Source: a virus
Lineage: Duplodnaviria; Heunggongvirae; Uroviricota; Caudoviricetes
Length of the DNA: 43,893 nucleotides
Virus record (IMG/VR): IMGVR_UViG_2645727810_000025
Span: 1-43,893 of that record
Direction: 5' to 3' (one strand)
Below are positions 4,341 through 35,337 of the stretch, one piece after another. The notes beneath the pieces were generated by a model, which saw only the letters and a program-made list of their open reading frames with translations, ran no database searches and was not told where the DNA came from. Position 1 is the first letter of the stretch, and each line of letters begins with the position of its first letter. Position numbers and translations under genes: made by a program.

Positions 4341-5333
4341 TCAGTAGTTGATGGTCGTTGCGGGTACTTTCCCGCGAGCGATGGCGACAACACATTCCTT
4401 CGCCCAGTCATCAGGAATACCCTGGTCAATTAGCGCTTGAACCGCAGAAGCATTAATGGCACGACGGTGCTCTACATCAGCAGCGCGTGCTGCCGCTTCG
4501 TCAGCGATGCGTTTCTCTTCTGCCAGGCGTGCTGCTTCTTTCGCTTCGGCCTCGCGCTTAATTCGATCTGCTTCTTCCTGTGATTTGCGCTTCTCGGCTT
4601 CGATAGCTTCCTGCTTTTCACGCTCGGCACGATCAGCGGCTTCCTTCTTCTCTGCTTCAGCTTTTTGCTCTGTGGCAATGCGGTCACGCTCTGCTTGCTC
4701 TGCCTTGAGCTTTAATTCAGCCTCACGACGGGCAGATTCAGCGCGTTCACGCTCTATTTTCTCTTCAGCTTCACGCCTGGCCTTTTCTTCCGCCTGGCGC
4801 TTCAACTCTTCTTCATGAGCAATGCGCTGGCGCTCTGCTTCTTCTGCTTTCGCCTTCGCTTCTCGGTCGAATGCGTCGTTCATCAGCAGGGCCATCTCGT
4901 GATCCGCTTCGAACTTGGCAGCCCGCTCCTGATCGAACTTGATATTCATCTCCAGTGCTTCGGCGTGCAGCACATTCATGGCTTCTTCAGCCTTGATGCG
5001 TTCCTGCTCGGCCTCCCATTCGGTAAGTGGGCGGCGAACCTCATCGCGCATCTCATCGCAAGCTGATACAAATCGACGCAGTTCAGCCTCAGCAGGTTTG
5101 ACGGCTTCTTTCAGATGACGAAGGTAATCTCGACCAGGCTTTTCAACTGCTGTTTTACTGCGAGAAACCTGTGCTGCCAGAGATGCAATGCGGGCACGAC
5201 CTTTGGCAGTGCTCAGGTCAGGAACTTCGTTAACGCTTTCGCGGATCTGTTCGAGGAACTTTTCCAGACCGTTTTCTACGTAAATGCTTGGCGCCATATC
5301 TGGCGCAATTTCGATAATTGCTAATTCGCTCAC
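4341..5333 (-). CDS. charged coiled-coil protein with E/K/R/A-rich repeat core (330 aa)
   Basis: GTG start with GGGGG SD-like; about 150-aa low-complexity stretch (AEEAERQRIAHEEELKRQAEEKARREAEEK...) flanked by non-repetitive ends. Confidence 0.6.
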   Translation of the reverse strand: MSELAIIEIAPDMAPSIYVENGLEKFLEQIRESVNEVPDLSTAKGRARIASLAAQVSRSKTAVEKPGRDYLRHLKEAVKPAEAELRRFVSACDEMRDEVRRPLTEWEAEQERIKAEEAMNVLHAEALEMNIKFDQERAAKFEADHEMALLMNDAFDREAKAKAEEAERQRIAHEEELKRQAEEKARREAEEKIERERAESARREAELKLKAEQAERDRIATEQKAEAEKKEAADRAEREKQEAIEAEKRKSQEEADRIKREAEAKEAARLAEEKRIADEAAARAADVEHRRAINASAVQALIDQGIPDDWAKECVVAIARGKVPATTINY

Positions 5334-12042: not shown

Positions 12043-12299
12043 TGGATGTAAAAGAGAAGGTTTTGCAGGTGATACGTTCCCGTGCGGCCCTGCAAGAGAA
12101 AGCTCTCGGCGGGGAATATCCATTCACGATAGCAACCTGGAATCTGCGGTTGGCAATGGAGAAGGAATTTCCTGATGAAGAATGGCGCTCGGCAGATTTG
12201 CGCAAAATTCTTATGGAGCTGGCTAAAGACGGAACAGTATCTAAAGATACCCATGCCAGCCGGATTGGTCAGGCGGTATGGAGACTGGAGGTGAGGTAA
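12039..12299 (+). CDS. hypothetical protein (86 aa)
   Basis: ATG 7 nt after AGGAGG; overlaps previous stop (ATGA). Confidence 0.5.
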   Translation: MMDVKEKVLQVIRSRAALQEKALGGEYPFTIATWNLRLAMEKEFPDEEWRSADLRKILMELAKDGTVSKDTHASRIGQAVWRLEVR

Positions 12300-12637
12300 T
12301 GGCTAAATCCGCAGCAGAACGCAAAGCCGCGCAGCGGGCCCGCCAGGCTGAATCTGGTAACCGCAAGCTTGAATTGCAACTCGATGAGCAGGAGCATGAG
12401 ATGCTGGCGCGGAACTGCGCCGCCCGGCGCCCTGGTCGTGCGCCGTATGAGATGAGCGAGTACATCGCGTTGCTTATCCGCCAGGATGATGCGCGAGTTC
12501 GTGGCCGTATCAAGTCAATCAGTTCTAACCGCTGTGGTAAGTGCGGCGATTCGCTACCGGTTGAGTCGTGTCCGTGCGACGGTGATTCTGCATGTTGGGT
12601 GACGCGTGGCTGGCATGAGACTAAGTTATCAGTGTGA
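12299..12637 (+). CDS. hypothetical basic protein with C-terminal Cys cluster (112 aa); candidate regulator
   Basis: ATG after GGAGGTGAGG; N-terminus rich in R/K/Q, C-terminus CGKCGDS...CPCDGDSAC; last gene before the packaging genes. Confidence 0.5.
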   Translation: MAKSAAERKAAQRARQAESGNRKLELQLDEQEHEMLARNCAARRPGRAPYEMSEYIALLIRQDDARVRGRIKSISSNRCGKCGDSLPVESCPCDGDSACWVTRGWHETKLSV

Positions 12638-12645
12638 CATGTCAC
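12634..12645. repeat. 12-bp perfect palindrome GTGACATGTCAC (copy 1)
   Basis: Overlaps the TGA stop of the 12299-12637 gene; followed by an intrinsic terminator. Confidence 0.7.
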
Positions 12646-13334: not shown

Positions 13335-14812
13335 CAACCGCAGCCATGTCGCCGGAAGAACAGCTCGTCGAGGATATCGCCTCGTTCACGTATGACCCGC
13401 TGGGCTATTCGCTGTATGCGTTTCCGTGGGGCGAAGAGGGAACAGAGCTGGCGCATGCCACCGGCCCACGCAAATGGCAGGCCGATGCATTCCGCGAGAT
13501 ACGCGATCACCTTCAGAATCCTGCCACTCGTCACCAGCCGCTGATGCTGGCCCGCGCATCCGGCCACGGTATCGGCAAATCCGCGTTCATCTCAATGCTG
13601 ATTAACTGGGGCATGTCCACCTGTGAAGACTGCAAGGTGGTGGTGACCGCCAACACAGACAACCAGCTGCGCACCAAAACATGGCCTGAAATCATCAAAT
13701 GGTCGAACCTGGCTATCACGAAAGAGTGGTTCACCTGCACCGCCACCGCGATGTACAGCAACGATCCCGGTCATGACAAACGCTGGCGCGCTGATGCTAT
13801 CCCATGGTCTGAGCACAACACTGAGGCGTTCGCCGGGCTGCACAACGAGCGTAAGCGCATCATAGTTGTATTCGATGAAGCGTCCAACATTGCCGATCTG
13901 GTGTGGGAAGTTGCCGAGGGTGCGCTGACGGACGAAGACACTGAAATCATCTGGGTGGCGTTCGGGAACCCGACGCGTAACACCGGGCGTTTCCGTGAAT
14001 GCTTCCGTAAATACAAACACCGCTGGAAGTGCGCGCAGATTGATTCACGTACCGTGGAAGGCACCAACAAGGAGCAACTGCAAAAATGGGTGGACGACTA
14101 CGGCGAGGACAGCGATTTCGTCAAAGTACGTGTGCGCGGGATCTTCCCTGACGCTTCTGAAAACCAGTTCATTCCATCAGGCCTGACGCAACCAGCTGTT
14201 GGCAGGGTTATTACTCCGGCACAGGTCCAGCACGCTGCTGTAGTTCTTGGCGTCGACCCGTCTCACCAGGGTAAAGACCCGGCGGTTATCTACCTGCGGC
14301 AAGGCCTGCACTGCAAAAAACTCGGGGAGTGGCAGCGTACCACTGACGATGTGCTGTTTGCGAAAGTGATTGCCGACTTCGAGGACCAGTACCAGGCTGA
14401 CGCTGTGTTTATCGATTACGGCTATGGCACAGGTCTTAAATCTGTTGGCGATAACTGGGGGCGCAACTGGACGCTGATAATGTTCGGCAGCGGTACGGCA
14501 GATCCCGAGATGGGCAACAAACGCGGCGAGATGTATAAATCCGCCCGTGACGCGCTGAAGCTTGGTGCGCAACTGGATAGCCAGGAACTTGCCGACGAAC
14601 TGAGCGCACCTGAATACAAAGTCAGGCTGAAGGACAGTAGGAAGATTTTGCAGGACAAGGACGAGGTGAAAGAATTGCTTGGCCGTTCACCGAACAACGC
14701 CGACGCCTATGTTCTGACCTACGCAGCACCGGTTACAAAAAAACAGTTTAACTATGGGCAGCAGCAAAGCCAGCAGGGTAAGGCACTCACAGAGTACGAT
14801 CCCTATGCATGA
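13331..14812 (+). CDS. terminase large subunit
   Basis: 493 aa; Walker A-like GHGIGKS; size and position between small terminase and the structural genes. Confidence 0.85.
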   Translation: MTTAAMSPEEQLVEDIASFTYDPLGYSLYAFPWGEEGTELAHATGPRKWQADAFREIRDHLQNPATRHQPLMLARASGHGIGKSAFISMLINWGMSTCEDCKVVVTANTDNQLRTKTWPEIIKWSNLAITKEWFTCTATAMYSNDPGHDKRWRADAIPWSEHNTEAFAGLHNERKRIIVVFDEASNIADLVWEVAEGALTDEDTEIIWVAFGNPTRNTGRFRECFRKYKHRWKCAQIDSRTVEGTNKEQLQKWVDDYGEDSDFVKVRVRGIFPDASENQFIPSGLTQPAVGRVITPAQVQHAAVVLGVDPSHQGKDPAVIYLRQGLHCKKLGEWQRTTDDVLFAKVIADFEDQYQADAVFIDYGYGTGLKSVGDNWGRNWTLIMFGSGTADPEMGNKRGEMYKSARDALKLGAQLDSQELADELSAPEYKVRLKDSRKILQDKDEVKELLGRSPNNADAYVLTYAAPVTKKQFNYGQQQSQQGKALTEYDPYA

Positions 14813-14815
14813 AAA

Positions 14816-14840
14816 AGCCCGCGCATCGGCGGGCTTTGTG
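14816..14840. terminator. bidirectional intrinsic terminator
   Basis: GCCCGC-gcatcg-GCGGGC hairpin flanked by A5 upstream and TTTGTG downstream; sits between convergent terL and the leftward 14999 gene. Confidence 0.65.
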
Positions 14841-14990
14841 TAGTGCGCGGTAGATGGTGCTGATATCCATCTGTGGCAGGTTGACAACAGCCACCTTCTT
14901 TCCCCGTCTCGTCAGCATATCGAGAATGTACCGCGCAATTCAGCATAAAAATGCTGAGTTAATAAGTCAATGCCGATTTGCGGGCTGATT

Positions 14991-15002
14991 GTGACATGTC
15001 AC
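14991..15002. repeat. 12-bp perfect palindrome GTGACATGTCAC (copy 2)
   Basis: Contains the TGA stop (reverse strand) of the 14999-15274 gene. Confidence 0.7.
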
Positions 15003-15274
15003 GGCTTAAAAACCGGCGGCACAGATGCCGTTCTTTGGATAGTTTTAATTATCTCACTTTCGTAATGATCTGCTCTTTTTTTCTGAATACTCATGTACTG
15101 AACGATGGCCTGTTGTTCAGTAATCGCACCATTCCTGAGTGCTGCAATAACCATCCTCGCATAAGTATCATGGGCAATTAAAGACTCAAGGTACTCAATA
15201 GCTGATGATTCTTTGGCCTGAATTTCCTGCTCGATAGCCATGAAGGATGGTGCTGGAGATGCAGTTGATACCAT
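14999..15274 (-). CDS. hypothetical helical protein (91 aa)
   Basis: ATG at 15274 with AAGGTG SD (the track's first codon at 15283 is GTG); no family recognised. Confidence 0.5.
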   Translation of the reverse strand: MVSTASPAPSFMAIEQEIQAKESSAIEYLESLIAHDTYARMVIAALRNGAITEQQAIVQYMSIQKKRADHYESEIIKTIQRTASVPPVFKP

Positions 15275-15286
15275 GATTATCACCTT

Positions 15287-15310
15287 AAAAAAATGCCCAC
15301 CGAAGTGGGC
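15287..15310 (-). terminator. intrinsic terminator (minus strand)
   Basis: GCCCAC-ttcg-GTGGGC hairpin followed by a T7 run on the minus strand, downstream of the 15395-15640 gene. Confidence 0.6.
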
Positions 15311-15387
15311 GAACTGGAAGCAAGGGTGCCTTCCATGGCAGTTACGGGTTTACAGCGCAACGTCATCGCAATGGCGTTCTGGTGTAA

Positions 15388-15409
15388 AGCCGCATTAGGC
15401 GGCTTTTTT
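15388..15409 (+). terminator. intrinsic terminator (plus strand)
   Basis: AGCCGC-loop-GCGGCT hairpin followed by TTTTTTG; overlaps the 3' end of the leftward 15395 gene (face-to-face with the minus-strand terminator). Confidence 0.5.
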
Positions 15410-15640
15410 GACTGGCGTTAACCATGCTTTGTTGAATTCCCGCATGGCTTCTTCTGGGGTGCTACCTACGCCGACAACTCCGGTTGGCAGGTCGCCATAT
15501 ATCGCAAGCCATTTATCTCCATCCTGACTAAGTGTCGGTCTGTACAAAACACTCGGTTCACGCATGCATTCAGAAGTAATCTGAAAGTCAGAGGCAACGT
15601 TGAAGAACACGTTTTGGAAATATCCGAGGTCAATATTCAT
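15395..15640 (-). CDS. hypothetical small protein with HicB-like (UPF0150-type) motif
   Basis: 81 aa, ATG with GGAG SD; segment DGDKWLAIYGDLPTGVVGVGSTPEEAMREFNKAW matches the HicB N-terminal pattern (DGGY..S.PDLPGC...G.T.EEA); no DNA-binding domain attached. Confidence 0.45.
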   Translation of the reverse strand: MNIDLGYFQNVFFNVASDFQITSECMREPSVLYRPTLSQDGDKWLAIYGDLPTGVVGVGSTPEEAMREFNKAWLTPVKKAA

Positions 15641-16534
15641 ACTTTTCTCCGGTAAAAAGGGCGGTGGTCAGAAAGGGAATAACTGCCACCGCCAAACTTG
15701 CACTGGAACTACGGGTATCACGGTCCTGAGGCGTGATTGGGTTGTGGTACGCAGTCTATTCGGCATAGCAACTCTGCGCAGATGCTTCTAACAATCACCG
15801 GTGGTAACCGGTTTAATGCCTTATTCACCACAACGGAAAGAGCACTGAAGCGATTACGATTTCAAGGTCGTAATGCTGGCATTGTCGCAATGCTCTTGCC
15901 TGTTGTGTGCTGACCTTACAGCCAGCATGGCTGGAATGAAGCCGCATAACGACTTTTCACCAACTAGGCAGGATCACCCTGAAAGAGCTGCCTCTTGATT
16001 CTTTCAGGCTCCCAATCTTTCCTGGTAGTCAATGCCTTCAGTTGGGCATGCAACCTTCGGTTATCGATCCGTCGTCATCGCCACTGTCCAGGACATTTAA
16101 AAGGACCGTCTCCAAGTGGTAACTCTTCCAGTCCCGCTAAGCACCCGGTGAGATGCTTAACGTGAATGGCTGACATCCTCGTCTCTTCCGAGGTGTCACA
16201 CCGTATCGCCACGATGGTGAGTCGTCTGTCCGTGCTTACCTAACACTGGCTTGCACATTCCGGCTACCCGGCTGGGGAAGTAGCATCAAGGGAACCCATC
16301 CGGACCGCTGCGGCACATGTGCCATATGCCGTACTGCTACACACCTGAAAGCGCACTCCACACCAGGCTCAAAGGTCATTCACTGAAGCGCGCTTTTAGT
16401 TGTGTGCGGAGATGATGCTCCGCTTATCCACCGCCTTTACTTTTAAGCCCAATTTATTGCTGCGGTACTCCGGGCTACTGCACAAGCGGTTACATAACCA
16501 CCTCCGCAATTCGTCAATTCAATACATGAATCAA
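15641..16534. other. about 0.9-kb ORF-free, hairpin-dense region (candidate structured ncRNA or decayed gene)
   Basis: No ORF of 60 aa or more in any frame except one 63-aa track ORF (15600-15791, +) at the left edge, although GC looks like coding DNA; many local stem-loops (GGCGGTGG...CCACCGCC near 15661; CCTGAAAG...CTTTCAGG near 15975; GCGGAG-atgatg-CTCCGC near 16408; palindrome GGCACATGTGCC near 16312). Confidence 0.3.
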
Positions 16535-16549
16535 TTACCTAAAAGGTAA
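16535..16549. promoter_or_regulatory. operator-like palindrome TTACCTAAAAGGTAA
   Basis: TTACC-N5-GGTAA followed by TATCT; a GGTAATAAT half-site follows at about 16607; 90 bp upstream of the 16640 gene and the portal operon. Confidence 0.5.
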
Positions 16550-16639
16550 TATCTGATGTTATAAGTGTCAATAGCCTACGCTAAATAAATCATATGTGGT
16601 TAAATTGGTAATAATTTAATTGCGTACGGAGCTATTGCT

Positions 16640-16846
16640 ATGTGTATCGGCAGCAAGCCATCAGTGCCAGCAGCACCAGAAGTACAGGCCGCGCCACAGG
16701 AGCAGGATGCAGCAGTTGTCAGTTCTCGTGATGACGAAGAGCGCCGCCGCCGTGCAGCTGCTGGTCGCAGTTCTACTCTGCTGACTGGTGCGCAGGGCGA
16801 CACCTCAACCGCAAACACCAGCGGTAAAACGCTGCTCGGTCAGTAA
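16640..16846 (+). CDS. hypothetical small protein (68 aa), Ala/Ser/Thr-rich
   Basis: ATG 12 nt after GGAG; directly upstream of the portal gene. Confidence 0.5.
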   Translation: MCIGSKPSVPAAPEVQAAPQEQDAAVVSSRDDEERRRRAAAGRSSTLLTGAQGDTSTANTSGKTLLGQ

Positions 16847-16860
16847 CGGAGTAGGCAGAG

Positions 16861-18531
16861 ATGGCGGAAACCGAAAAAGAGCGTCTGCTGAAGCAGCTAG
16901 CACAGCTGAAGAGTGAGCGCACATCGTTCGAATCGCACTGGCGTGACCTGAGCGATTTTATCAATCCGCGCGGTTCCCGCTTTCTGACGTCTGATGTAAA
17001 CCGTGATGATCGTCGTAACACCAAGATTGTTGATCCTACCGGCTCAATGGCTCAGCGCATTCTGTCCAGCGGCATGATGTCCGGCATCACGAGCCCGGCA
17101 CGTCCATGGTTCAAACTGGCAACGCCTGACCCTGACATGATGGATTACGGCCCGGTGAAAGTCTGGCTTGAAGTCGTGCAGCGCCGCATGAACGAAGTGT
17201 TCAACAAGTCTAACCTGTATCAGTCACTGCCTGTCATGTACGCCAGCCTGGGTACTTTCGGCACCGCCGCTATGGCTGTGCTGGAAGATGACCAGGACGT
17301 TATCCGCACAATGCCTTTCCCGATTGGCAGCTACTACCTGGCTAACAGCCCGCGCGGCAGCGTCGACACTTCATTCCGTCAGTTCTCCATGACTGTTCGT
17401 CAACTGGTGCAGGAATTCGGTCTGGATAACGTCAGCTCATCGGTGCAGGGGATGTGGCAAAACGGCACGTATGAAACGTGGATCGAGGTTAACCACTGCA
17501 TTACGCCAAACGTTAACCGCGACACAGGGAAGATGGACAGCAAGAACAAGCCGTTCCGCTCCGTGTACTTCGAGAGTGGCGGCGACTCCGACAAGCTGCT
17601 GCGTGAATCCGGATTCGATGAATTCCCGATCCTTGCTCCGCGCTGGGAAGTTAACGGCGAAGACGTTTACGCATCATCCTGCCCCGGCATGCTGGCACTC
17701 GGTCAGGTTAAAGCCCTTCAGGTTGAGCAGAAGCGTAAGGCTCAGCTCATAGATAAGGCCACTAACCCGCCGATGGTTGCACCGACGTCACTTAAAACGC
17801 AGCGTGTTTCCCTGCTTCCTGGTGATGTGACGTACCTCGACGTGTTGAGCGGTCAGGACGGTTTCAAACCTGCATACCTGGTAAACCCGAATACTGCAGA
17901 TCTGCTGGCTGATATTCAGGATACCCGCCAGACCATCAACAGCGCCTACTTTGTCGACCTCTTCATGATGCTGCAAAACATCAATACCCGCTCTATGCCG
18001 GTGGAAGCGGTGATCGAGATGAAGGAAGAGAAACTGCTGATGCTTGGCCCGGTGCTGGAGCGCCTGAACGACGAAGCGCTTAACCCGCTTATTGACCGCG
18101 TGTTCTCCATTATGGCGCGCAAAAATATGCTTCCGCCACCGCCTGACGTTATGCAGGGTATGCCGCTGCGTATCGAATACATCTCCGTTATGGCGCAGGC
18201 TCAGAAATCTATCGGACTCACCAGCCTTTCGCAGACCGTTGGCTTCATTGGCCAACTCGCACAGTTCAAACCTGAAGCACTCGACAAGCTCGATGTGGAT
18301 GAGGCTATCGACGCGTTCTCCGAAATGTCCGGCGTATCGCCAACCGTCATCATTCCGCAGGAGCAGGTTCAGGGCATTCGTGAAGAGCGCGCCAAACAGG
18401 CACAAGCCGCACAGGCAATGGCAATGGGGCAGGCCGTAGCGCAGGGAGCCAAGACTCTCAGCGAGACGCAAACCACTGACCCGAGCGCATTAACCGCTAT
18501 CGCTAATGCAGCAGGAGCACCGCAGCAATGA
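16861..18531 (+). CDS. portal protein
   Basis: 556 aa; first large gene after the terminase region, followed by scaffold and capsid; N-terminal pattern resembles podovirus portal proteins. Confidence 0.75.
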   Translation: MAETEKERLLKQLAQLKSERTSFESHWRDLSDFINPRGSRFLTSDVNRDDRRNTKIVDPTGSMAQRILSSGMMSGITSPARPWFKLATPDPDMMDYGPVKVWLEVVQRRMNEVFNKSNLYQSLPVMYASLGTFGTAAMAVLEDDQDVIRTMPFPIGSYYLANSPRGSVDTSFRQFSMTVRQLVQEFGLDNVSSSVQGMWQNGTYETWIEVNHCITPNVNRDTGKMDSKNKPFRSVYFESGGDSDKLLRESGFDEFPILAPRWEVNGEDVYASSCPGMLALGQVKALQVEQKRKAQLIDKATNPPMVAPTSLKTQRVSLLPGDVTYLDVLSGQDGFKPAYLVNPNTADLLADIQDTRQTINSAYFVDLFMMLQNINTRSMPVEAVIEMKEEKLLMLGPVLERLNDEALNPLIDRVFSIMARKNMLPPPPDVMQGMPLRIEYISVMAQAQKSIGLTSLSQTVGFIGQLAQFKPEALDKLDVDEAIDAFSEMSGVSPTVIIPQEQVQGIREERAKQAQAAQAMAMGQAVAQGAKTLSETQTTDPSALTAIANAAGAPQQ

Positions 18532-25638: not shown

Positions 25639-26186
25639 TGTGCAGCCCGGCTATCGCTCTCGTTGGCGCCAGTGTCGCTTTAAGTGGCGTTTCAGCATAC
25701 AACCAGTACCAGCAAGGTAAGTATTCGTCTGCTGTTGCCGAGCAAAATGCAGAAGTGGCCACGGCACAGGCACAGGATTCTATCAACCGTGGTAATGCTC
25801 AGGCTGATGAGGTTCGTCGTCGTAACCGTCAGGCTGCTGGAACCCAGGCGGCAACCATGGGCGCAACTGGCGCAGATCTTTCCACTGGTGGAGCGCTTGA
25901 TATCTTTGGCGATACAGCTCAGTTTGGCGCGCTTGATGCGCTGACTACTGTGAATAATGCCCAGAGAGAGGCCTATGGTTTTCGTGTTCAGGGGGCAAAT
26001 TATCAGTCTCAGGCAGATTCAGCGCGCAGTGCAGGAAGTGCCGGCCTGACTCAGACATTACTAACCGCGCCACTGAAGGCATATGGGGCTTATAAGATTG
26101 GTGGTGGAGAGTGGAACCCATTTACTCAAACTGATCCTGCACCTATCGGAGCAGCAGCCGGAACTAGATTGCCAAGGGGGTTATGA
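25638..26186 (+). CDS. internal virion protein B (T7 gp14-like)
   Basis: 182 aa; N-terminus MCSPAIALVGASVALSGVS followed by Q/A-rich helical region mirrors the T7 gp14 N-terminus (MC.AAIPIAISGAQAISG...) as I recall it. Confidence 0.55.
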   Translation: MCSPAIALVGASVALSGVSAYNQYQQGKYSSAVAEQNAEVATAQAQDSINRGNAQADEVRRRNRQAAGTQAATMGATGADLSTGGALDIFGDTAQFGALDALTTVNNAQREAYGFRVQGANYQSQADSARSAGSAGLTQTLLTAPLKAYGAYKIGGGEWNPFTQTDPAPIGAAAGTRLPRGL

Positions 26187-28807
26187 TGCCAGTTGTACCT
26201 ACAGTTAACGGACGCCAGGTCGAAAGTCGTGGGTTTCAGTCTCCTGGATTTCAGGCTTTTGATCAGCCAAACATCGGTGATGCTATCGTCGACGCTGGCA
26301 GCAAAGCTATCAACGTATTTGGAGAGGCCAAGCAACGGGCAAATGTGGCACTTACCCAAGAGGCAACTCTTCAACTGAATGCGGTTGGCAACGATCTGCT
26401 AAATAACCCTGATTCAGGCTTCATGAATCTGCAAGGGAAGAACGCGATCGGCAAGGGGCAGGAGTACGTGCAGCAGTTTGATTCTCAGGCGCAGAGCATT
26501 GCAGCAAGCCTGCCGGATGAGCAGGCGCGAAATGCGTTTCTTCAGCAGGCACAGCAGCAGAGAATCCAGTTCCAGACGACCGCTGTTCGTCATGAAGTTG
26601 GGCAGGTGCGTCAGTACGAAGCAGGTATGCAGGAGGGAACGTTACGTTCGCTGGCACAGCAGGCGATTTCTCCTGGTCTGTTTGTTCCTGCATTGATGAA
26701 TGCTCGTAATTCTATTATCGCTTATGGGAAAGCCCACGGACAGAGCGATGAGGAAATAGAGTCTAATTTCGTGCAGTGGCGTGAGCAGGCCGCCAACCGC
26801 GCCAGCGAAGCATGGTATACACAAACCTATCAGCAAATCATGGGGCCGGAAGGTAAGATCGAAGTTACCGACACTCCGAGCGAATCGCAGCTTTTTTCCG
26901 CGATGATCTGGCATGAATCCGGAGGTAATCAGTATGGCAAAGACGGTTTACCACTGGTATCTCCGAAAGGTGCAGTAGGGGTGGCGCAGGTGATGGAGGA
27001 TACGGGGCCGGAAGCAGCACGACTGGCTGGCGTACCGTGGGATCGTGGTAAGTGGCTGAACGATACGCGCTACAATGCGAAGCTTGGTCAAGCCTACTTC
27101 GGCGCGCAGATGAAGAAGTATGACAATAATCCTGTACTGGCGGTGGCGGCGTATAACGCTGGGCCAGGTGAGGTTGATGGATGGATAAAGCAGTTTGGCG
27201 ACCCGCGTACTGGTGCGGTGAGCAATGAGCAATTCGCTGCGGCAATCCCTTATGATGAAACTCGCAACTATGTCGCGAAAGTAACCGGCAGCGCTCCGGC
27301 GATACCAGGAACTGCTACGATGGAAAACCTCATCAATCAGCCTTTCTGGGATGCGATGAGTCCGCAGAACAAATCAGCGATGATGAGCAAAGTGGCAGGC
27401 ATGTACGATATGCAAGCCGCAGCTGGTCGCGTGTCATTGCAAAGCCGCATGCAGGATGACCTTGCTAAATTAGAGTCAGGACAGAAAGTTAACCCGATCT
27501 CGGAACGTGAGTGGCTGGCGGTCATGCCGTTGCAGGCAAGCCCGGCGGAGCGCATTCAGATGCGCGAGTCATTCCAGCAATATCAGCAGGCGATGACGCT
27601 GCAACCGGTATATCAATCCATTGTTCAGGGTTCTGCGCAGCAGGGTATCGCTGCGGTGCAGTCTATGGTGCCGCAGGAAGATGACCCTGACTTTAAATTT
27701 AAGCAGAGCTTGTACGCAACTGCGCAGGCCAAACTGAATCAGGTAATTAAAGCGCGCGAGTCCGACCCGGGTACGTGGCTACAAGCCAACTCGCCGGTGG
27801 TGAAAAACGCCTTTGAGCAATATCAGAACAACCAGGCATCAGGTGAATATCTGGTTTCCCGTCTGCAAGCAGAGAAAGACCGCCTTGGTATCAATAGTAA
27901 GAAGGTACTTCCTGACGCCATGGTTAACAACCTCATTTCTCAGATCGATAACAATAAAGAATCAAGCGTGACCGCCATTCAGTCGGTGGCGCAGTCGTTC
28001 GGAAAATACTCCGATCAGGTTATGCAGCAGGTGCAGAAAAGCGCATATCCAGCGCTTCAAGTCATCATGGCGACCAATAATCCTCGGGCCGCCAACGCGC
28101 TCTGGCAAAACCGCAGTGTTAAAACTTCTGACCTGCGCGGCACCTTTGAGAAGACAGACGCCGACAGCGCCGACTCATCCTGGAATGACCAGGCTAAAGA
28201 CTTTGCCGGTACGATGGTTGTGCAGCCTGGCGGGGCCGCCGTATGGAATAACTTCAACGAGCAGGGCAAGCGTCTTACCTACACCTATATGCAGCGCGGC
28301 ATGTCACCGGGCGATGCAGCAAAACAGGCCTACCAGGACGTTCTCGGTGAACAGTATCAGACCAATGGCACCTGGCGTATGCCGAACAACTCCGGGCACG
28401 ATATTCGCGACGTTAACGACGGCGCTAACGAGTATCTGAAAAACCTGTCAGCCGATCAGATCATGCCGCTTATCGGCGATGCCCGTCTACCGGATGAGGT
28501 TAACCGCGAGCAGAGTATTTCGCGCATTCGTGAAAATGCGCAGTGGGTGACGAACAGCAACGAAACAGGGCTGACACTGATGATGAACGGGCTGCTGATC
28601 AATAACGCCCAGGGGCAGCCGATTACCGTGCCGTTTGCTGACCTGGCGAAACTTGGCGCTGGCAACCGCACCACGTGGAACAGCCTGACTAAATTCGTGC
28701 AGACGCCGGTTAAGTACACTCCGGGCCAGTCGAAGAATTACACGGTGGAAAGTCAGCGCGACAACCTGATCAACATTATCCAGAACGGCCAGCAGGCGGG
28801 ACGATAA
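26183..28807 (+). CDS. internal virion / ejection protein with lytic transglycosylase (SLT) domain
   Basis: 874 aa; SLT motifs (MIWHESGGNQYG ... AYNAGPGEVDGW) in the N-terminal third. Confidence 0.75.
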   Translation: MMPVVPTVNGRQVESRGFQSPGFQAFDQPNIGDAIVDAGSKAINVFGEAKQRANVALTQEATLQLNAVGNDLLNNPDSGFMNLQGKNAIGKGQEYVQQFDSQAQSIAASLPDEQARNAFLQQAQQQRIQFQTTAVRHEVGQVRQYEAGMQEGTLRSLAQQAISPGLFVPALMNARNSIIAYGKAHGQSDEEIESNFVQWREQAANRASEAWYTQTYQQIMGPEGKIEVTDTPSESQLFSAMIWHESGGNQYGKDGLPLVSPKGAVGVAQVMEDTGPEAARLAGVPWDRGKWLNDTRYNAKLGQAYFGAQMKKYDNNPVLAVAAYNAGPGEVDGWIKQFGDPRTGAVSNEQFAAAIPYDETRNYVAKVTGSAPAIPGTATMENLINQPFWDAMSPQNKSAMMSKVAGMYDMQAAAGRVSLQSRMQDDLAKLESGQKVNPISEREWLAVMPLQASPAERIQMRESFQQYQQAMTLQPVYQSIVQGSAQQGIAAVQSMVPQEDDPDFKFKQSLYATAQAKLNQVIKARESDPGTWLQANSPVVKNAFEQYQNNQASGEYLVSRLQAEKDRLGINSKKVLPDAMVNNLISQIDNNKESSVTAIQSVAQSFGKYSDQVMQQVQKSAYPALQVIMATNNPRAANALWQNRSVKTSDLRGTFEKTDADSADSSWNDQAKDFAGTMVVQPGGAAVWNNFNEQGKRLTYTYMQRGMSPGDAAKQAYQDVLGEQYQTNGTWRMPNNSGHDIRDVNDGANEYLKNLSADQIMPLIGDARLPDEVNREQSISRIRENAQWVTNSNETGLTLMMNGLLINNAQGQPITVPFADLAKLGAGNRTTWNSLTKFVQTPVKYTPGQSKNYTVESQRDNLINIIQNGQQAGR

Positions 28808-33062: not shown

Positions 33063-33434
33063 ATGAACAGAATTATATTAATGACTCTTCTTATTTTTTT
33101 TGTTGGAAAAGCTTCTGCTGATACTACATCACCTTTAATGATTCAGCCTAAAAATGGAGAAACATTGGAGGATTCTAAAAAGCATACAATGGAATACTTT
33201 GGATGCATAAAAGGGCAGGCTGTAAAGTATGCCAAGACAGGAGAAAGTGTTGATTCCATATCAAAAGCTTCGGTTGTGTCATGCGAGTCATACATACCAA
33301 TGATCGCCGAGTCGAATATATATTATTTAAACTCTTCGCAAGATGGTAAGCGGCAATTTACAGAAAGGCTAAAATCTGATGGTGAGAGATTAGCCACAAA
33401 ATTTGCCATGGATGAGAAGATTAAAAATAAATAG
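33063..33434 (+). CDS. secreted/periplasmic hypothetical protein (AT-rich moron)
   Basis: 123 aa with signal peptide MNRIILMTLLIFFVGKASA/DT; visibly lower GC than the flanking structural genes. Confidence 0.6.
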   Translation: MNRIILMTLLIFFVGKASADTTSPLMIQPKNGETLEDSKKHTMEYFGCIKGQAVKYAKTGESVDSISKASVVSCESYIPMIAESNIYYLNSSQDGKRQFTERLKSDGERLATKFAMDEKIKNK

Positions 33435-33442
33435 GTGACCAC

Positions 33443-33739
33443 ATGCAAGCTATTGGTTTCATTGTTTACATAGTTGTTGGTCTTTTTCAGTTGGCTGCGA
33501 TCATGGCTGGTCTTGAATCGTGGTGGGGACTGCACTGGATAGTGGCTGCACCCATTGCTTTCATCGTTAGTTATATCCCGTTGGTCGGTTCCATTGTTGG
33601 AATGGTTGGCGCTGTCGACGTATGGCGTTGGGAATGGTGGCAGGCAGGGCTTCTTTTCTTTGGCGGCCTGGTTTTTGCTATTGCGTGCGGGGGAATGTCT
33701 TCGTTCTTCGAATGGCTATCCTTCAGGAAAAGAGCGTGA
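33443..33739 (+). CDS. small integral membrane protein (98 aa, about 3 TM segments)
   Basis: Hydrophobic Trp-rich sequence; ATG after AGGTGA; stop lies inside the GTGACATGTCAC palindrome. Confidence 0.6.
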   Translation: MQAIGFIVYIVVGLFQLAAIMAGLESWWGLHWIVAAPIAFIVSYIPLVGSIVGMVGAVDVWRWEWWQAGLLFFGGLVFAIACGGMSSFFEWLSFRKRA

Positions 33740-33747
33740 CATGTCAC
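33736..33747. repeat. 12-bp perfect palindrome GTGACATGTCAC (copy 3)
   Basis: Overlaps the TGA stop of the 33443-33739 gene; followed by a terminator. Confidence 0.7.
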
Positions 33748-33749
33748 AA

Positions 33750-33776
33750 AGGCCGCCGAAGCGGCCTTAATTTTTT
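33750..33776. terminator. bidirectional intrinsic terminator
   Basis: AGGCCGC-cgaa-GCGGCCT hairpin followed by TAATTTTTT; between convergent genes. Confidence 0.65.
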
Positions 33777-33927
33777 AACGCCCGCCAGGACGAGAATCGG
33801 CAGAACGACCACCGCAGCGTGATCCATCCGAAGCCGTATCGCTGTCATGCTGGCAGTTTCCAGCAAAAGCTTGTGTAGCAGAACCCAGAGACAACAGAAC
33901 AAACAGCACTGCTAATGCTTTTTTCAT
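33775..33927 (-). CDS. candidate small secreted protein (50 aa), below the ORF-track cutoff
   Basis: My own translation: MKKALAVLFVLLSLGSATQAFAGNCQHDSDTASDGSRCGGRSADSRPGGR; canonical signal peptide with AFA cleavage motif; weak SD. Confidence 0.4.
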   Translation of the reverse strand: MKKALAVLFVLLSLGSATQAFAGNCQHDSDTASDGSRCGGRSADSRPGGR

Positions 33928-33995
33928 TTCTTAATTCCATGTGTAGGCCACTAAATTATGGCGAAGAATTGTAGCGCGTCCATGCGCTACCGTCA

Positions 33996-34685
33996 TCAGA
34001 ACTTACCAGTCATGCTGTTGATGTACTGCACATGAGTCTGGATATCGCGCAGGCATTTACTGGCACCTACGATGTAGCTCATCATGGCCGTGAACTCTGC
34101 TACAGCACCTTCAACATCATGTCCGTCGGCGTCCATCTTCCGCAGCAGGTCCATCAGCATCGATCGCTCCGTCAGGCCAAGAACGCCTTCAGGTGAATGG
34201 ATGTGTTCACGGTAGTTCGGCTTGAGTGGTGCGCTGTATTCCTGTTTCTCTTCCGTTTTCATCGCTTCCAGAATGGCGGGCATGAAGCTGGCCACAACCT
34301 TTTGCGCTTTGTCTGCCGGTGATAATTCTTCACGAACGTAGCGACCGGTGCGACGTATCTGCGGGAGAACTTCGCCAGTTACCCATTTGCGGAAACGATA
34401 GGGGATAGTACCAGGAGTTACCGCATCGCGGCAGCGCAGGATCAGAGTGTAGAGGCCGGATTCAGAGATGATGAGGGTATTAGGGTTCCCTCGTTTTCCG
34501 TCGGTTAAAGCGACGGTATTCTTTTCGTCGTCATCCAATTTAAGCAGAGCATCACGGTTGTTTGATATACCAAGAGCATTACATACATCTAACGCAATAA
34601 ACCATGGCTCGCCGTCGATGATGATTGCACGAATATCGGCTTGCGATTCGAAAGAAAAAACTGAAGTATTTTTTTGAGTTGTCAT
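33996..34685 (-). CDS. phage antirepressor, Bro-N domain protein
   Basis: 229 aa from ATG at 34685 (AAGGTG SD; the track's first codon at 34694 is GTG); N-terminal Bro-N pattern (FSFESQADIRAIIIDGEPWFIALDVCNALGI). Confidence 0.7.
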   Translation of the reverse strand: MTTQKNTSVFSFESQADIRAIIIDGEPWFIALDVCNALGISNNRDALLKLDDDEKNTVALTDGKRGNPNTLIISESGLYTLILRCRDAVTPGTIPYRFRKWVTGEVLPQIRRTGRYVREELSPADKAQKVVASFMPAILEAMKTEEKQEYSAPLKPNYREHIHSPEGVLGLTERSMLMDLLRKMDADGHDVEGAVAEFTAMMSYIVGASKCLRDIQTHVQYINSMTGKF

Positions 34686-34843
34686 AGTGATCACCTTTTA
34701 GTCTGGTTAATCACCACCGGAGGTTCCAATCTCGGAGGTGGTGAACTGTGCAGGGTTGGAACTACCGGCTAAAAGGACCCGGCGCACCTTTCGGTGCCCC
34801 CACACAGCCCACCATAATGCGAATGTGGCCGTGCTTAACGCAT

Positions 34844-34945
34844 AAAAAAACCGCTTGCGCGGTGAATGCGCCTTTTAGTATCCGGGGTTCCAATCCCGGC
34901 ACTGGATTTTGCCAGTGCCTGATCACTATGGCACAAGTATTTTGC
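34844..34945 (-). ncRNA. candidate small regulatory RNA upstream of the antirepressor gene (C4-antisense-like architecture)
   Basis: Minus-strand order: palindromic promoter-like site (34955-34969), then 8-bp stem-loop GGCACUGG/CCAGUGCC, 5-bp stem-loop with loop AUUGGAAC, then CCGC-GCAA-GCGG hairpin plus U7; the loop motif GAUUGGAAC recurs in a hairpin at 34715-34745 in the antirepressor 5' UTR. Confidence 0.3.
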
Positions 34946-35000: not shown

Positions 35001-35261
35001 TTATGTGGTTTGTCTTCGTAGCTGTTCAACACAGTAATCGAGATGTGTCTGCACATCCTTCATGGATAGCTGTGAGCTGGTGACATAGTTCACCAGTGCA
35101 GTAAGTTCGGCCAGCGGCCCGTCGACGTTGAACCCGTCTTTATCAAGTTCCCGCAATAAAGTCATAAGGTGCGAGTTCTCCACCAGGGATATAACGCCTC
35201 CCGGCGTGTGTACTCTTTCATAAAATCCATCTTCCAGTGGGTGGTGATACCGCTGTTGCAT
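35001..35261 (-). CDS. small protein paralogous to the antirepressor C-terminal domain (86 aa)
   Basis: ATG at 35261 with GGAG SD (the track start at 35279 is TTG); HTPGGVISLVENSHLMTLLRELDKDGFNVDGPLAELTALVNYV aligns with HSPEGVLGLTERSMLMDLLRKMDADGHDVEGAVAEFTAMMSYI of the 33996 gene. Confidence 0.55.
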   Translation of the reverse strand: MQQRYHHPLEDGFYERVHTPGGVISLVENSHLMTLLRELDKDGFNVDGPLAELTALVNYVTSSQLSMKDVQTHLDYCVEQLRRQTT

Positions 35262-35337
35262 TAACCATTCTCCATACAAACACTGTATATATATACATAT
35301 ATCAGATGAACCACTGTTTCACCAGTATGATTTTTAA

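Follow-up and report, generated by a model that had tools for sequence, protein, structure and literature searches.

Three independently assorting genes with predicted envelope-targeted products at the end of the ejection-protein operon of an epsilon15-like prophage

Morons in lambdoid phages are units made up of a promoter, a gene and a terminator, for example gp15 of HK97 or bor and lom of lambda. In phage P22, sieA is convergent on gene 16, which is the last of the ejection-protein genes, and is transcribed from a promoter of its own. It codes for an inner-membrane protein that blocks injection of phage DNA at the conduit formed by gp20 and gp16, and the escape mutations map to these two ejection proteins (PMC10883804). 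The same layout, with the ejection genes followed by a small envelope gene at the operon end, an antirepressor region and the tailspike gene, is found in the DNA analysed here, IMG/VR record IMGVR_UViG_2645727810_000025, whose 43,893 nucleotides (nt) are called the window below. By its synteny and PHROG matches the window is an epsilon15-like (Uetakevirus) prophage with the gene order of epsilon15, phiV10 and Klebsiella phage BUCT711. Three small open reading frames (ORFs), orf123, orf98 and orf50, named after the number of amino acids (aa) they encode, lie between the gp17-like gene for the last ejection protein and the antirepressor and tailspike genes. Judged from the genomes compared, they are three cassettes occupying a gap that is hypervariable in epsilon15-like podophages, and their products are all predicted, from sequences and structure models, to be targeted to the cell envelope. 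The explanation which fits them best overall, and towards which we lean without strong confidence, is by analogy envelope-level protection of the lysogen or the infected cell by these accessory products.

In an original prediction made from this DNA the three genes were taken for a single AT-rich cluster of morons inside the late operon. All three ORFs were found exactly as described there (coordinates in Table 1), while they actually lie where the 3' end of the late operon meets the leftward antirepressor operon. Nor do the genes form one cluster: each has had a history of its own, the mosaic breakpoints lying between genes, and each is present or absent without regard to the other two. Among relatives of the phage, each of orf123, orf98 and orf50 occurs alone, and they also occur as the pairs orf98 with orf50, orf123 with orf98 and orf123 with orf50, and all together, the exact trio being present at 98-100% identity in a few uncultivated virus genomes (UViGs). 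Homology to Klebsiella prophages whose gp17 is 98% identical extends through orf123 and ends at its stop codon, and homology to BUCT711-type phages runs from about 15 nt before orf98 to beyond the orf50 promoter. The patchy distribution, the occurrence of all combinations among close relatives and the replacement by unrelated genes bear out the claim that they are accessory cargo and not uniformly conserved structural genes. In one E. coli prophage (L013, 5373-5402) homology continues for about 30 nt past orf123, up to the first ca. 22 nt of orf98, and then breaks. To judge by the sequence, this looks like a deletion scar, in which case the orf123-orf98 pair would once have been present and orf98 lost.

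The contents of the gap elsewhere were followed through orf50, relatives of which are present in 312 IMG/VR viral contigs; the best 80 were examined. The gene convergent on orf50 at these 80 loci is orf98 (29), a gp17-like gene across a gap (19), a p21-like (3), orf123-like (2), gp18-like (1) or Rap1a (1) gene, or some other gene (24). When clustered, the terminal plus-strand ORFs beside orf50 are found to code mostly for small multi-pass membrane proteins, signal-peptide proteins and lipoproteins, with a minority of cytoplasmic proteins; about 62 of the 72 classifiable slot loci are envelope-directed according to an approximate hand tally of the family list. In epsilon15 and phiV10 the slot is filled by gp18 and p21, small integral membrane proteins of 64 and 46 aa, respectively, situated like orf98 before the same palindrome and terminator. 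They have two transmembrane helices instead of the three hydrophobic segments of orf98, are far less widely conserved, and are unrelated to it in sequence (gp18 and p21 were scored as separate tblastn queries, and the terminal ORFs fall into separate blastp families). In the prophage of E. coli EC2001 (L026, 4092-4475) the gp17-like gene is immediately followed by a gene for a Rap1a/Tai immunity protein of 127 aa (PF18602, E=2.8e-12), on which orf50 converges at 96% nucleotide identity. This immunity protein is of the type VI secretion system (T6SS) immunity type, here phage-borne, directed against a peptidoglycan-amidase effector, and the arrangement of gp17-like gene, Rap1a gene and orf50 recurs in another IMG/VR locus (L169). 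In BUCT711 (L001, 3833-4006) an unannotated ORF for a 57-aa membrane protein with two helices, having a TTG start and the Shine-Dalgarno (SD) sequence GGGGGA, lies between gp17 and the orf98 homologue; such an ORF was found in 26 of the IMG/VR loci examined.

All three ORFs are, on the evidence of sequence comparison, real genes under strong purifying selection, with pairwise ratios of nonsynonymous to synonymous substitution rates (dN/dS) of 0.008-0.16 over the three. Their base composition is not uniform. The G+C content (GC) predicted to be lower than that of the neighbours holds for orf123, with 35.2% (31.5% at third codon positions, GC3), and fails for orf98 (49.5%) and orf50 (51.6%), both of which are near the window mean of 50.9%; the neighbouring gp17-like gene has 56.6%. 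The foreign composition of orf123 agrees with the proposed horizontal acquisition of this gene and is shared with the lambdoid morons, the composition of the other two being ordinary. As regards moron status, orf50 has all the parts of such a unit, the promoter at consensus level, and sits between conserved neighbours, as described below. In turn, orf123 and orf98 have neither a promoter nor a terminator of their own, since the hairpin behind them is that of the late operon, and the promoter scan revealed no promoter-like site for either; lacking a promoter and fused to the late operon, they are not morons in the strict sense.

orf98 starts 8 nt after the stop codon of orf123 and is preceded at a distance of 6 nt by a strong SD sequence (AGGTGA). 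The match to phrog_3075 is full-length, with residues 1-97 aligned to positions 1-97 of the 98-position profile. The family itself carries no annotation; its linkage to the end of the ejection operon and the motif mentioned below are described here. Its product was expected to be a multi-pass membrane protein, which is supported by three hydrophobic segments in the hydropathy profile and by an AlphaFold2 model of long helices (residues 2-28, 32-42, 46-59, and 65-97) with a predicted local distance difference test score (pLDDT) of 90. In the alignment of the family a W-x-W-W-Q-A...F motif is invariant, and there is a glycine zipper, G49xxxG53xxG56. The C-terminus has three positive charges, which make an N-out/C-in topology likely, and the invariant W63-x-W65-W66-Q67-A68 would then probably lie at the periplasmic face.

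The conservation of orf98 is independent of that of its neighbour. Compared across phages whose gp17 is only 23% identical, it is 96% identical in protein sequence, with dN/dS of 0.008-0.03. A recent exchange of the gene between these phages was considered and rejected, as synonymous sites are saturated (proportion of synonymous differences, pS, 0.73), and the identity of the protein therefore reflects constraint and not recency. An orf98 relative is present in 106 IMG/VR viral contigs, and in 79 of the best 80, which were examined, it directly follows a gp17-like gene of either of two types. At the same 80 loci orf50 is convergent in 47, a close orf123 (87-100% identical) is present in six and a distant orf123-like ORF (43%) in two. 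A constraint far above that of gp17, together with indifference to the gp17 type, suggests that the target is a conserved feature of the host or of the conduit rather than gp17. An orf98 homologue is also encountered in a metagenome island (L023-L025; gene 5001-5312) with genes for a DUF927 primase, SSB and AlpA. Its phage-derived pieces are an intact gp15-like SLT protein (70-75% identical along its whole length), the last 74 codons of gp17 and the intact orf98 homologue; an integrase was seen in one of the three loci (L024), and the flanking cargo comprises Abi_2 in L023 and L025, and PP2C/kinase with SocA_Panacea in L024. The island may be a satellite or a remnant that keeps an ejection protein and orf98. 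Its gene content appears to tie orf98 to the biology of the ejection proteins, and would fit an exclusion role and a partner role equally.

orf123 begins 2 nt after the stop codon of the gp17-like gene. The signal peptide claimed for its product is predicted from hydropathy and the family pattern at aa 1-19 (nt 33063-33119), with a basic n-region, a hydrophobic h-region of 10-15 residues and a c-region, small residues at positions -3 and -1, cleavage of the A-x-A type between MNRIILMTLLIFFVGKASA and DT, and no lipobox Cys at +1. Over the family the signal region drifts in sequence yet remains hydrophobic and retains the A-x-A, with the mature part nearly invariant (dN/dS of the gene 0.11-0.16, pairwise). 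The mature part of about 104 aa is all-helical with two Cys invariant in the family alignment; the AlphaFold2 model, a helical bundle, is confident (pLDDT 87), and a fold search with it gave no informative match. orf123 matched nothing in PHROG, and none of the three proteins matched Pfam, NCBIfam, or PADLOC. The family consists of 22 clusters, all from Enterobacterales prophages, and is absent from the phage-record and plasmid collections. In IMG/VR it is present in 17 viral contigs, 14 of them with the gene after a gp17 of the window type. Neither kind of gp17 was seen with the three distant copies (47-51% identical), one of which comes after a 1,129-aa protein occupying the place of the last ejection gene; a copy in Sodalis, 60% identical, adjoins a Rep3 replication gene. 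Most simply, orf123 would code for a periplasmic binder or an immunity-like protein.

orf50 appears to form an autonomous cassette. Its 5' block starts with the stop codon that closes the antirepressor gene, 68 nt upstream, and orf50 may therefore also be transcribed by read-through from the immI operon. It comprises a consensus-level promoter with a -35-like ATGACG (33996-33991) and a -10 TACAAT (33973-33968) 40 nt from the ATG, followed by a hairpin, GCCAT-N6-GTGGC, at 33962-33947 and the SD region. In an alignment of seven cassettes a block of about 75 nt upstream of orf50 is conserved, with TACAAT or TACACT, the hairpin GCCAY-N6-GTGGY where the mRNA is predicted to begin, and the SD sequence. 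Most relatives also have a terminator of the upstream operon before the promoter block. Among the 80 viral loci 69 show a -10-like hexamer at a distance of 39-43 nt from the ATG and 61 the hairpin, and the terminator core GGCCGC-N3-5-GCGGCC follows the gene in 68. Thus, as far as these sequences tell, orf50 is a classic moron, a promoter-gene-terminator cassette travelling as a unit, which resembles sieA of P22 in its convergent orientation and its own putative promoter.

The product of orf50 has a canonical signal peptide, as had been claimed, predicted from hydropathy and from the family pattern, in which the h-region drifts but stays hydrophobic, the A-x-A is retained and the mature part is near-invariant (dN/dS 0.05-0.09, pairwise). 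It spans aa 1-22 (33927-33862) with n-, h- and c-regions of the same kind as in orf123 and A-x-A cleavage between MKKALAVLFVLLSLGSATQAFA and GN, leaving a mature peptide of 28 aa, GNCQHDSDTASDGSRCGGRSADSRPGGR (33861-33778). The two Cys pointed out in the original prediction are both invariant across the family. A lipoprotein or an o-spanin was considered and rejected, there being no lipobox, since the Cys lies 2-3 residues past the cleavage site at A-x-A. The peptide is a full-length member of phrog_14503 and phrog_3117 (E=7.9e-31 and 2.8e-28), the "membrane associated protein" of the moron category, the first match covering residues 1-49 with all invariant columns. Proteins of Citrobacter, Klebsiella, and E. 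coli with 86-100% identity to it are named "transmembrane anchored protein" by NCBI, as are 103 clusters of its relatives. Both this name and that of the PHROG families are descriptive only. The A-x-A and the pattern of the family speak for cleavage of the signal peptide and against an anchor. A literature search under the NCBI name found nothing relevant, and a sequence search of the three proteins against the PDB gave noise only, including a match of orf50 to Spackle that spans the signal peptide alone.

The mature peptide consists largely of a 25-residue motif, C-x6-A-x-DGS-x-CG-x-R-x4-RPGG, for which there is no Pfam model. A profile search of 1.84 billion representative proteins returned 565 orf50-like clusters at E<=0.001, and in the best 145 of them all 124 instances of the motif are exactly 25 residues long, with the form C-x6-A-x-D-G-S-x-C-G-x-R-[AS]-[AS]-x-x-R-P-G-G. 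When sorted into heuristic classes, it is a stand-alone peptide in 35, an N-terminal module in 37, and a C-terminal module in 42, the last often just past a hydrophobic helix. Larger proteins of Proteobacteria and Cyanobacteria carry it too, and the species include many Enterobacterales, Advenella, Paraburkholderia, Rhizobiales, Azospirillum, and Nostocales. One family of 220-290 aa (P0195, P0196, P0200, P0224, P0246) has a signal peptide with the mini-domain at the start, then a conserved NPDTDW, a transmembrane helix and an unannotated cytoplasmic domain; in further proteins the mini-domain is C-terminal after a helix, sometimes in two copies. An 805-aa chitin-binding protein in the list of hidden Markov model matches is a look-alike and no relative. 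Chromosomal relatives of orf50, such as those in the greA-carB gap and at a Mesorhizobium locus, have no recurrent neighbour and show lineage-specific synteny only. Among 5,426 complete E. coli genomes, 446 contain DNA resembling the orf50 region.

Envelope protection is the best guess because the slot elsewhere holds small membrane proteins, lipoproteins and a Rap1a immunity protein, and the superinfection exclusion or envelope modification suggested in the original prediction is likewise plausible. To judge by the layout, orf123 and orf98 are an appendage of the late operon, co-transcribed with the ejection genes up to the operon terminator, and orf50 is a separate unit on the other strand, with a sigma-70-type promoter, a stabilising 5' hairpin and the shared hairpin terminator. 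The three products would act as follows. The orf98 protein would be an inner-membrane protein whose invariant Trp-rich loop lies on the periplasmic side, and would interfere, in the manner of SieA, with the DNA conduit that incoming phages build across the envelope from their ejection proteins or, alternatively, with a conserved host membrane partner of the conduit. By this analogy orf98 is, we think, the best candidate for an inner-membrane entry block. The orf123 product might be a disulfide-bonded helical protein of the periplasm neutralising an incoming envelope-active protein by binding, at the place held by the Rap1a/Tai immunity protein in the sister prophage. Finally, the orf50 product would be exported, cut by signal peptidase I and oxidised to a disulfide loop of 28 residues, the free form of a juxtamembrane mini-domain of larger bacterial proteins and probably with the same envelope ligand.

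Several points weigh against this explanation, which is drawn from gene position and analogy. None of the three proteins matched a PADLOC-DB v2 family at E<=1. SieA of P22 is, as predicted for orf98, a multi-pass inner-membrane protein, but it has 164 aa and no sequence similarity to the latter, and a relationship of the two was rejected when the orf98 family was compared by hhalign with the P22 type of SieA (probability 0.2%). Moreover, orf98 lies on the late strand without a promoter of its own, unlike sieA, and the orf50 product is a predicted secreted peptide, not a membrane protein like SieA. The sequence of orf123 does not resemble that of Rap1a, and the fold-search matches listed include no chain of Rap1a/Tai4. 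Having no promoters of their own, orf123 and orf98 are perhaps made only late in infection, which would suit a role in the lytic cycle equally well. Relatives of orf50 are located at ordinary chromosomal sites of Alphaproteobacteria and Cyanobacteria without conserved neighbours, so the primary role of this peptide need not concern phages.

A lytic role is the substance of an alternative in which orf123 and orf98 assist the ejection proteins late in the cycle, for instance as a membrane or periplasmic factor for assembly, ejection or the timing of lysis, and are not cargo protecting the lysogen. Both genes are consistently located just behind the last of the ejection-protein genes, have no promoters of their own, and are transcribed together with the gp17-like gene, to which their translation is probably coupled as well; besides, orf98 is under extreme constraint (dN/dS ~0.01) and was kept beside the gp15-like SLT protein in an island with no other virion genes. 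Nevertheless, epsilon15, phiV10 and many close relatives lack both genes, prophages with a 98% identical gp17 have orf123 and not orf98, and unrelated proteins including Rap1a substitute for them in the slot. Nor does orf98 co-evolve with gp17, as follows from its near-identity in phages with strongly diverged gp17. We consider this alternative unlikely.

The Rap1a protein of EC2001 gives rise to a second alternative, that orf123 codes for a periplasmic immunity protein against peptidoglycan-degrading effectors, be it T6SS amidases or the SLT domain of the ejection proteins of an incoming phage, and is a functional analogue of Rap1a/Tai4. A true member of that family at the same position, the similar size of about 125 aa, the signal peptide and predicted periplasmic location, the all-helical fold with two invariant Cys, and the SLT domain of the neighbouring gp15-like protein speak for it. 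On the other side, no BLASTP alignment, an hhalign probability of 0.4% and no Pfam match were obtained for orf123, and an evolutionary relationship to Rap1a was rejected on these grounds. Such a specific function is doubtful, more so than the late-cycle role.

Regarding orf50, a bolder form of the protective explanation can be put forward. Its product would be the free, phage-borne form of an undescribed disulfide-stapled extracytoplasmic mini-domain of 25 residues, whose cassette was captured by temperate podophages and is expressed in the lysogen, where the peptide binds a conserved envelope component needed by incoming phages or their conduit; with orf98 it would make up a new entry block of two layers, the periplasm and the inner membrane. 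This is a speculation that we would expect to fail at one point or another, about as readily as the late-cycle role. Much less probable is an arbitrium-like communication or regulatory peptide of the lysis-lysogeny switch, an idea raised by orf50 being placed where the antirepressor operon ends. Such a role would suit a small peptide that is exported by the Sec pathway, encoded so close to the antirepressor gene without a terminator in between, and linked to an immI-type region in many phages. Phage signalling peptides of the arbitrium type are expected to differ between phages, each being encoded next to the gene of its cognate receptor, whereas the mature orf50 sequence is near-invariant across phages and hosts. 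Furthermore, no receptor gene co-occurs with it, its upstream gene is variable and often separated by a terminator, and the domain is present in larger membrane proteins and at chromosomal sites outside prophages, from Mesorhizobium to Nostoc. That any of the ORFs is a chance frame or a decaying remnant, as their shortness, the lack of a Pfam family and, according to the original prediction, the absence of orf50 from the supplied ORF track might imply, can practically be dismissed, being already refuted by the selection analysis (low dN/dS with synonymous sites near saturation), by tens to hundreds of homologous clusters of the same length for each, and by confident structure models of orf123 and orf98.

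The three genes are thus real but ordinary phage cargo, adding members and detail to a known category and leaving current phage biology unchanged. The points worth keeping are their independent assortment, the orf50 cassette with its mini-domain, the linkage of orf98 to the ejection operon, and the palindrome at the operon end. The gap between ejection and tailspike genes of Uetakevirus holds mostly envelope-directed cargo, and if protection is indeed its function, it is a compact site to be mined for superinfection-exclusion and immunity proteins. orf98, among the most constrained genes of these phages, and the common orf50 are both testable candidates. Hundreds of small proteins could be better annotated if the orf50 mini-domain, which is found across Proteobacteria and Cyanobacteria and is not covered by Pfam, were given a name.

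Table 1. Features of the ejection-to-tailspike region of the window and their coordinates
Feature	Coordinates	Strand	Evidence and remarks
gp15-like protein with SLT domain	26183-28807		Pfam SLT, E=2.5e-15
gp17-like pilot/ejection protein, 848 aa	30515-33061	+	phrog_684, E=2.7e-262; last core gene of the late head/ejection operon
orf123, 123 aa, putative Sec-exported periplasmic protein	33063-33434	+	sequence, hydropathy, family alignment
orf98, 98 aa, small putative inner-membrane protein	33443-33739	+	phrog_3075, E=1.5e-52
Perfect 12-bp palindrome GTGACATGTCAC	33736-33747		supplies the TGA stop of orf98
Intrinsic terminator	33749-33776	both	8-bp GC stem, tetraloop, then AATTTTTT on the plus strand
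orf50, 50 aa, predicted secreted mini-protein precursor	33775-33927	-	phrog_14503, E=7.9e-31
orf50 promoter and 5' leader	33928-33996	-	promoter scan; block conserved whatever the upstream gene
Bro-N antirepressor, 232 aa	33996-34694	-	Pfam Bro-N, E=8e-21; phrog_130 Ant
C4 antisense RNA	34819-34734	-	Rfam match above gathering score
isrK small RNA	34918-34844	-	Rfam match above gathering score
Tailspike, 903 aa	35457-38168	+	N-terminus typical for the genus

The terminator hairpin (33749-33768) is followed by a good U-run on the plus strand and by a weaker one, a UUUGUG tail, on the minus strand. By the quality of these runs, it ends the late operon and, less efficiently, orf50. The bidirectional terminator of the original prediction is therefore there in so far as the hairpin serves both strands; it belongs to the operon end and the orf50 cassette, not to a unit of three genes. 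Just before it lies the palindrome GTGACATGTCAC, three exact copies of which are found in the window (12634-12645, 14991-15002, and 33736-33747), with about 0.003 expected. Each copy supplies a TGA stop codon, namely that of a 119-aa homologue of a Zn-finger regulator (12278-12637), of a 94-aa minus-strand ORF and of orf98, respectively. A clear intrinsic terminator follows the copies at 12634 and 33736, and the hairpin by the 14991 copy is imperfect. Of 205 fetched loci, 155 have one copy of the palindrome where the late operon ends, irrespective of the final plus-strand gene. It is kept in the alignment of orf50 cassettes, but the P22 region fetched has none. The palindrome may function as an operator, mark a module boundary or form a part of the terminator.

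Upstream, the gp17-like gene is preceded by genes for the gp15-like protein and a gp16-like protein. On the other side, the antirepressor gene lies directly upstream of orf50, with no terminator found between the two. With isrK and C4 RNA (RF01394 and RF01695, 76 and 77 bits, respectively) it constitutes a leftward immI operon of the P1/Gifsy type between orf50 and the tailspike gene, with the isrK/C4/antirepressor architecture known from Gifsy-1 (PMC4825925). In this the window differs from P22, whose antirepressor is controlled by Arc, Mnt, and sar. In the immI control region (34734-34931, minus strand) a match to the c4-a1b1 target, overlapping isrK, scored 42 bits, below the gathering score of 46.7. 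orf92 (35001-35279, minus strand), epsilon15 gp19-like and belonging to phrog_450, is about 41% identical to Ant residues 142-224, and the operon thus carries a free copy of the antirepressor C-terminal domain upstream of isrK.

The tailspike gene has a GC of 41.7% and a GC3 of 31.5%, below the values of the head and ejection genes; its receptor-binding part matches phrog_22294, and its conserved N-terminus matches another PHROG. The low GC and the split matches are consistent with a recently swapped host-range module. Finally, a 2-kb segment between the large terminase and portal genes (14812-16861; GC 47%) has no long plus-strand ORF. It contains minus-strand ORFs of 94 and 81 aa without Pfam matches, has a terminator and a copy of the palindrome at its bounds, and may be a second cargo slot.

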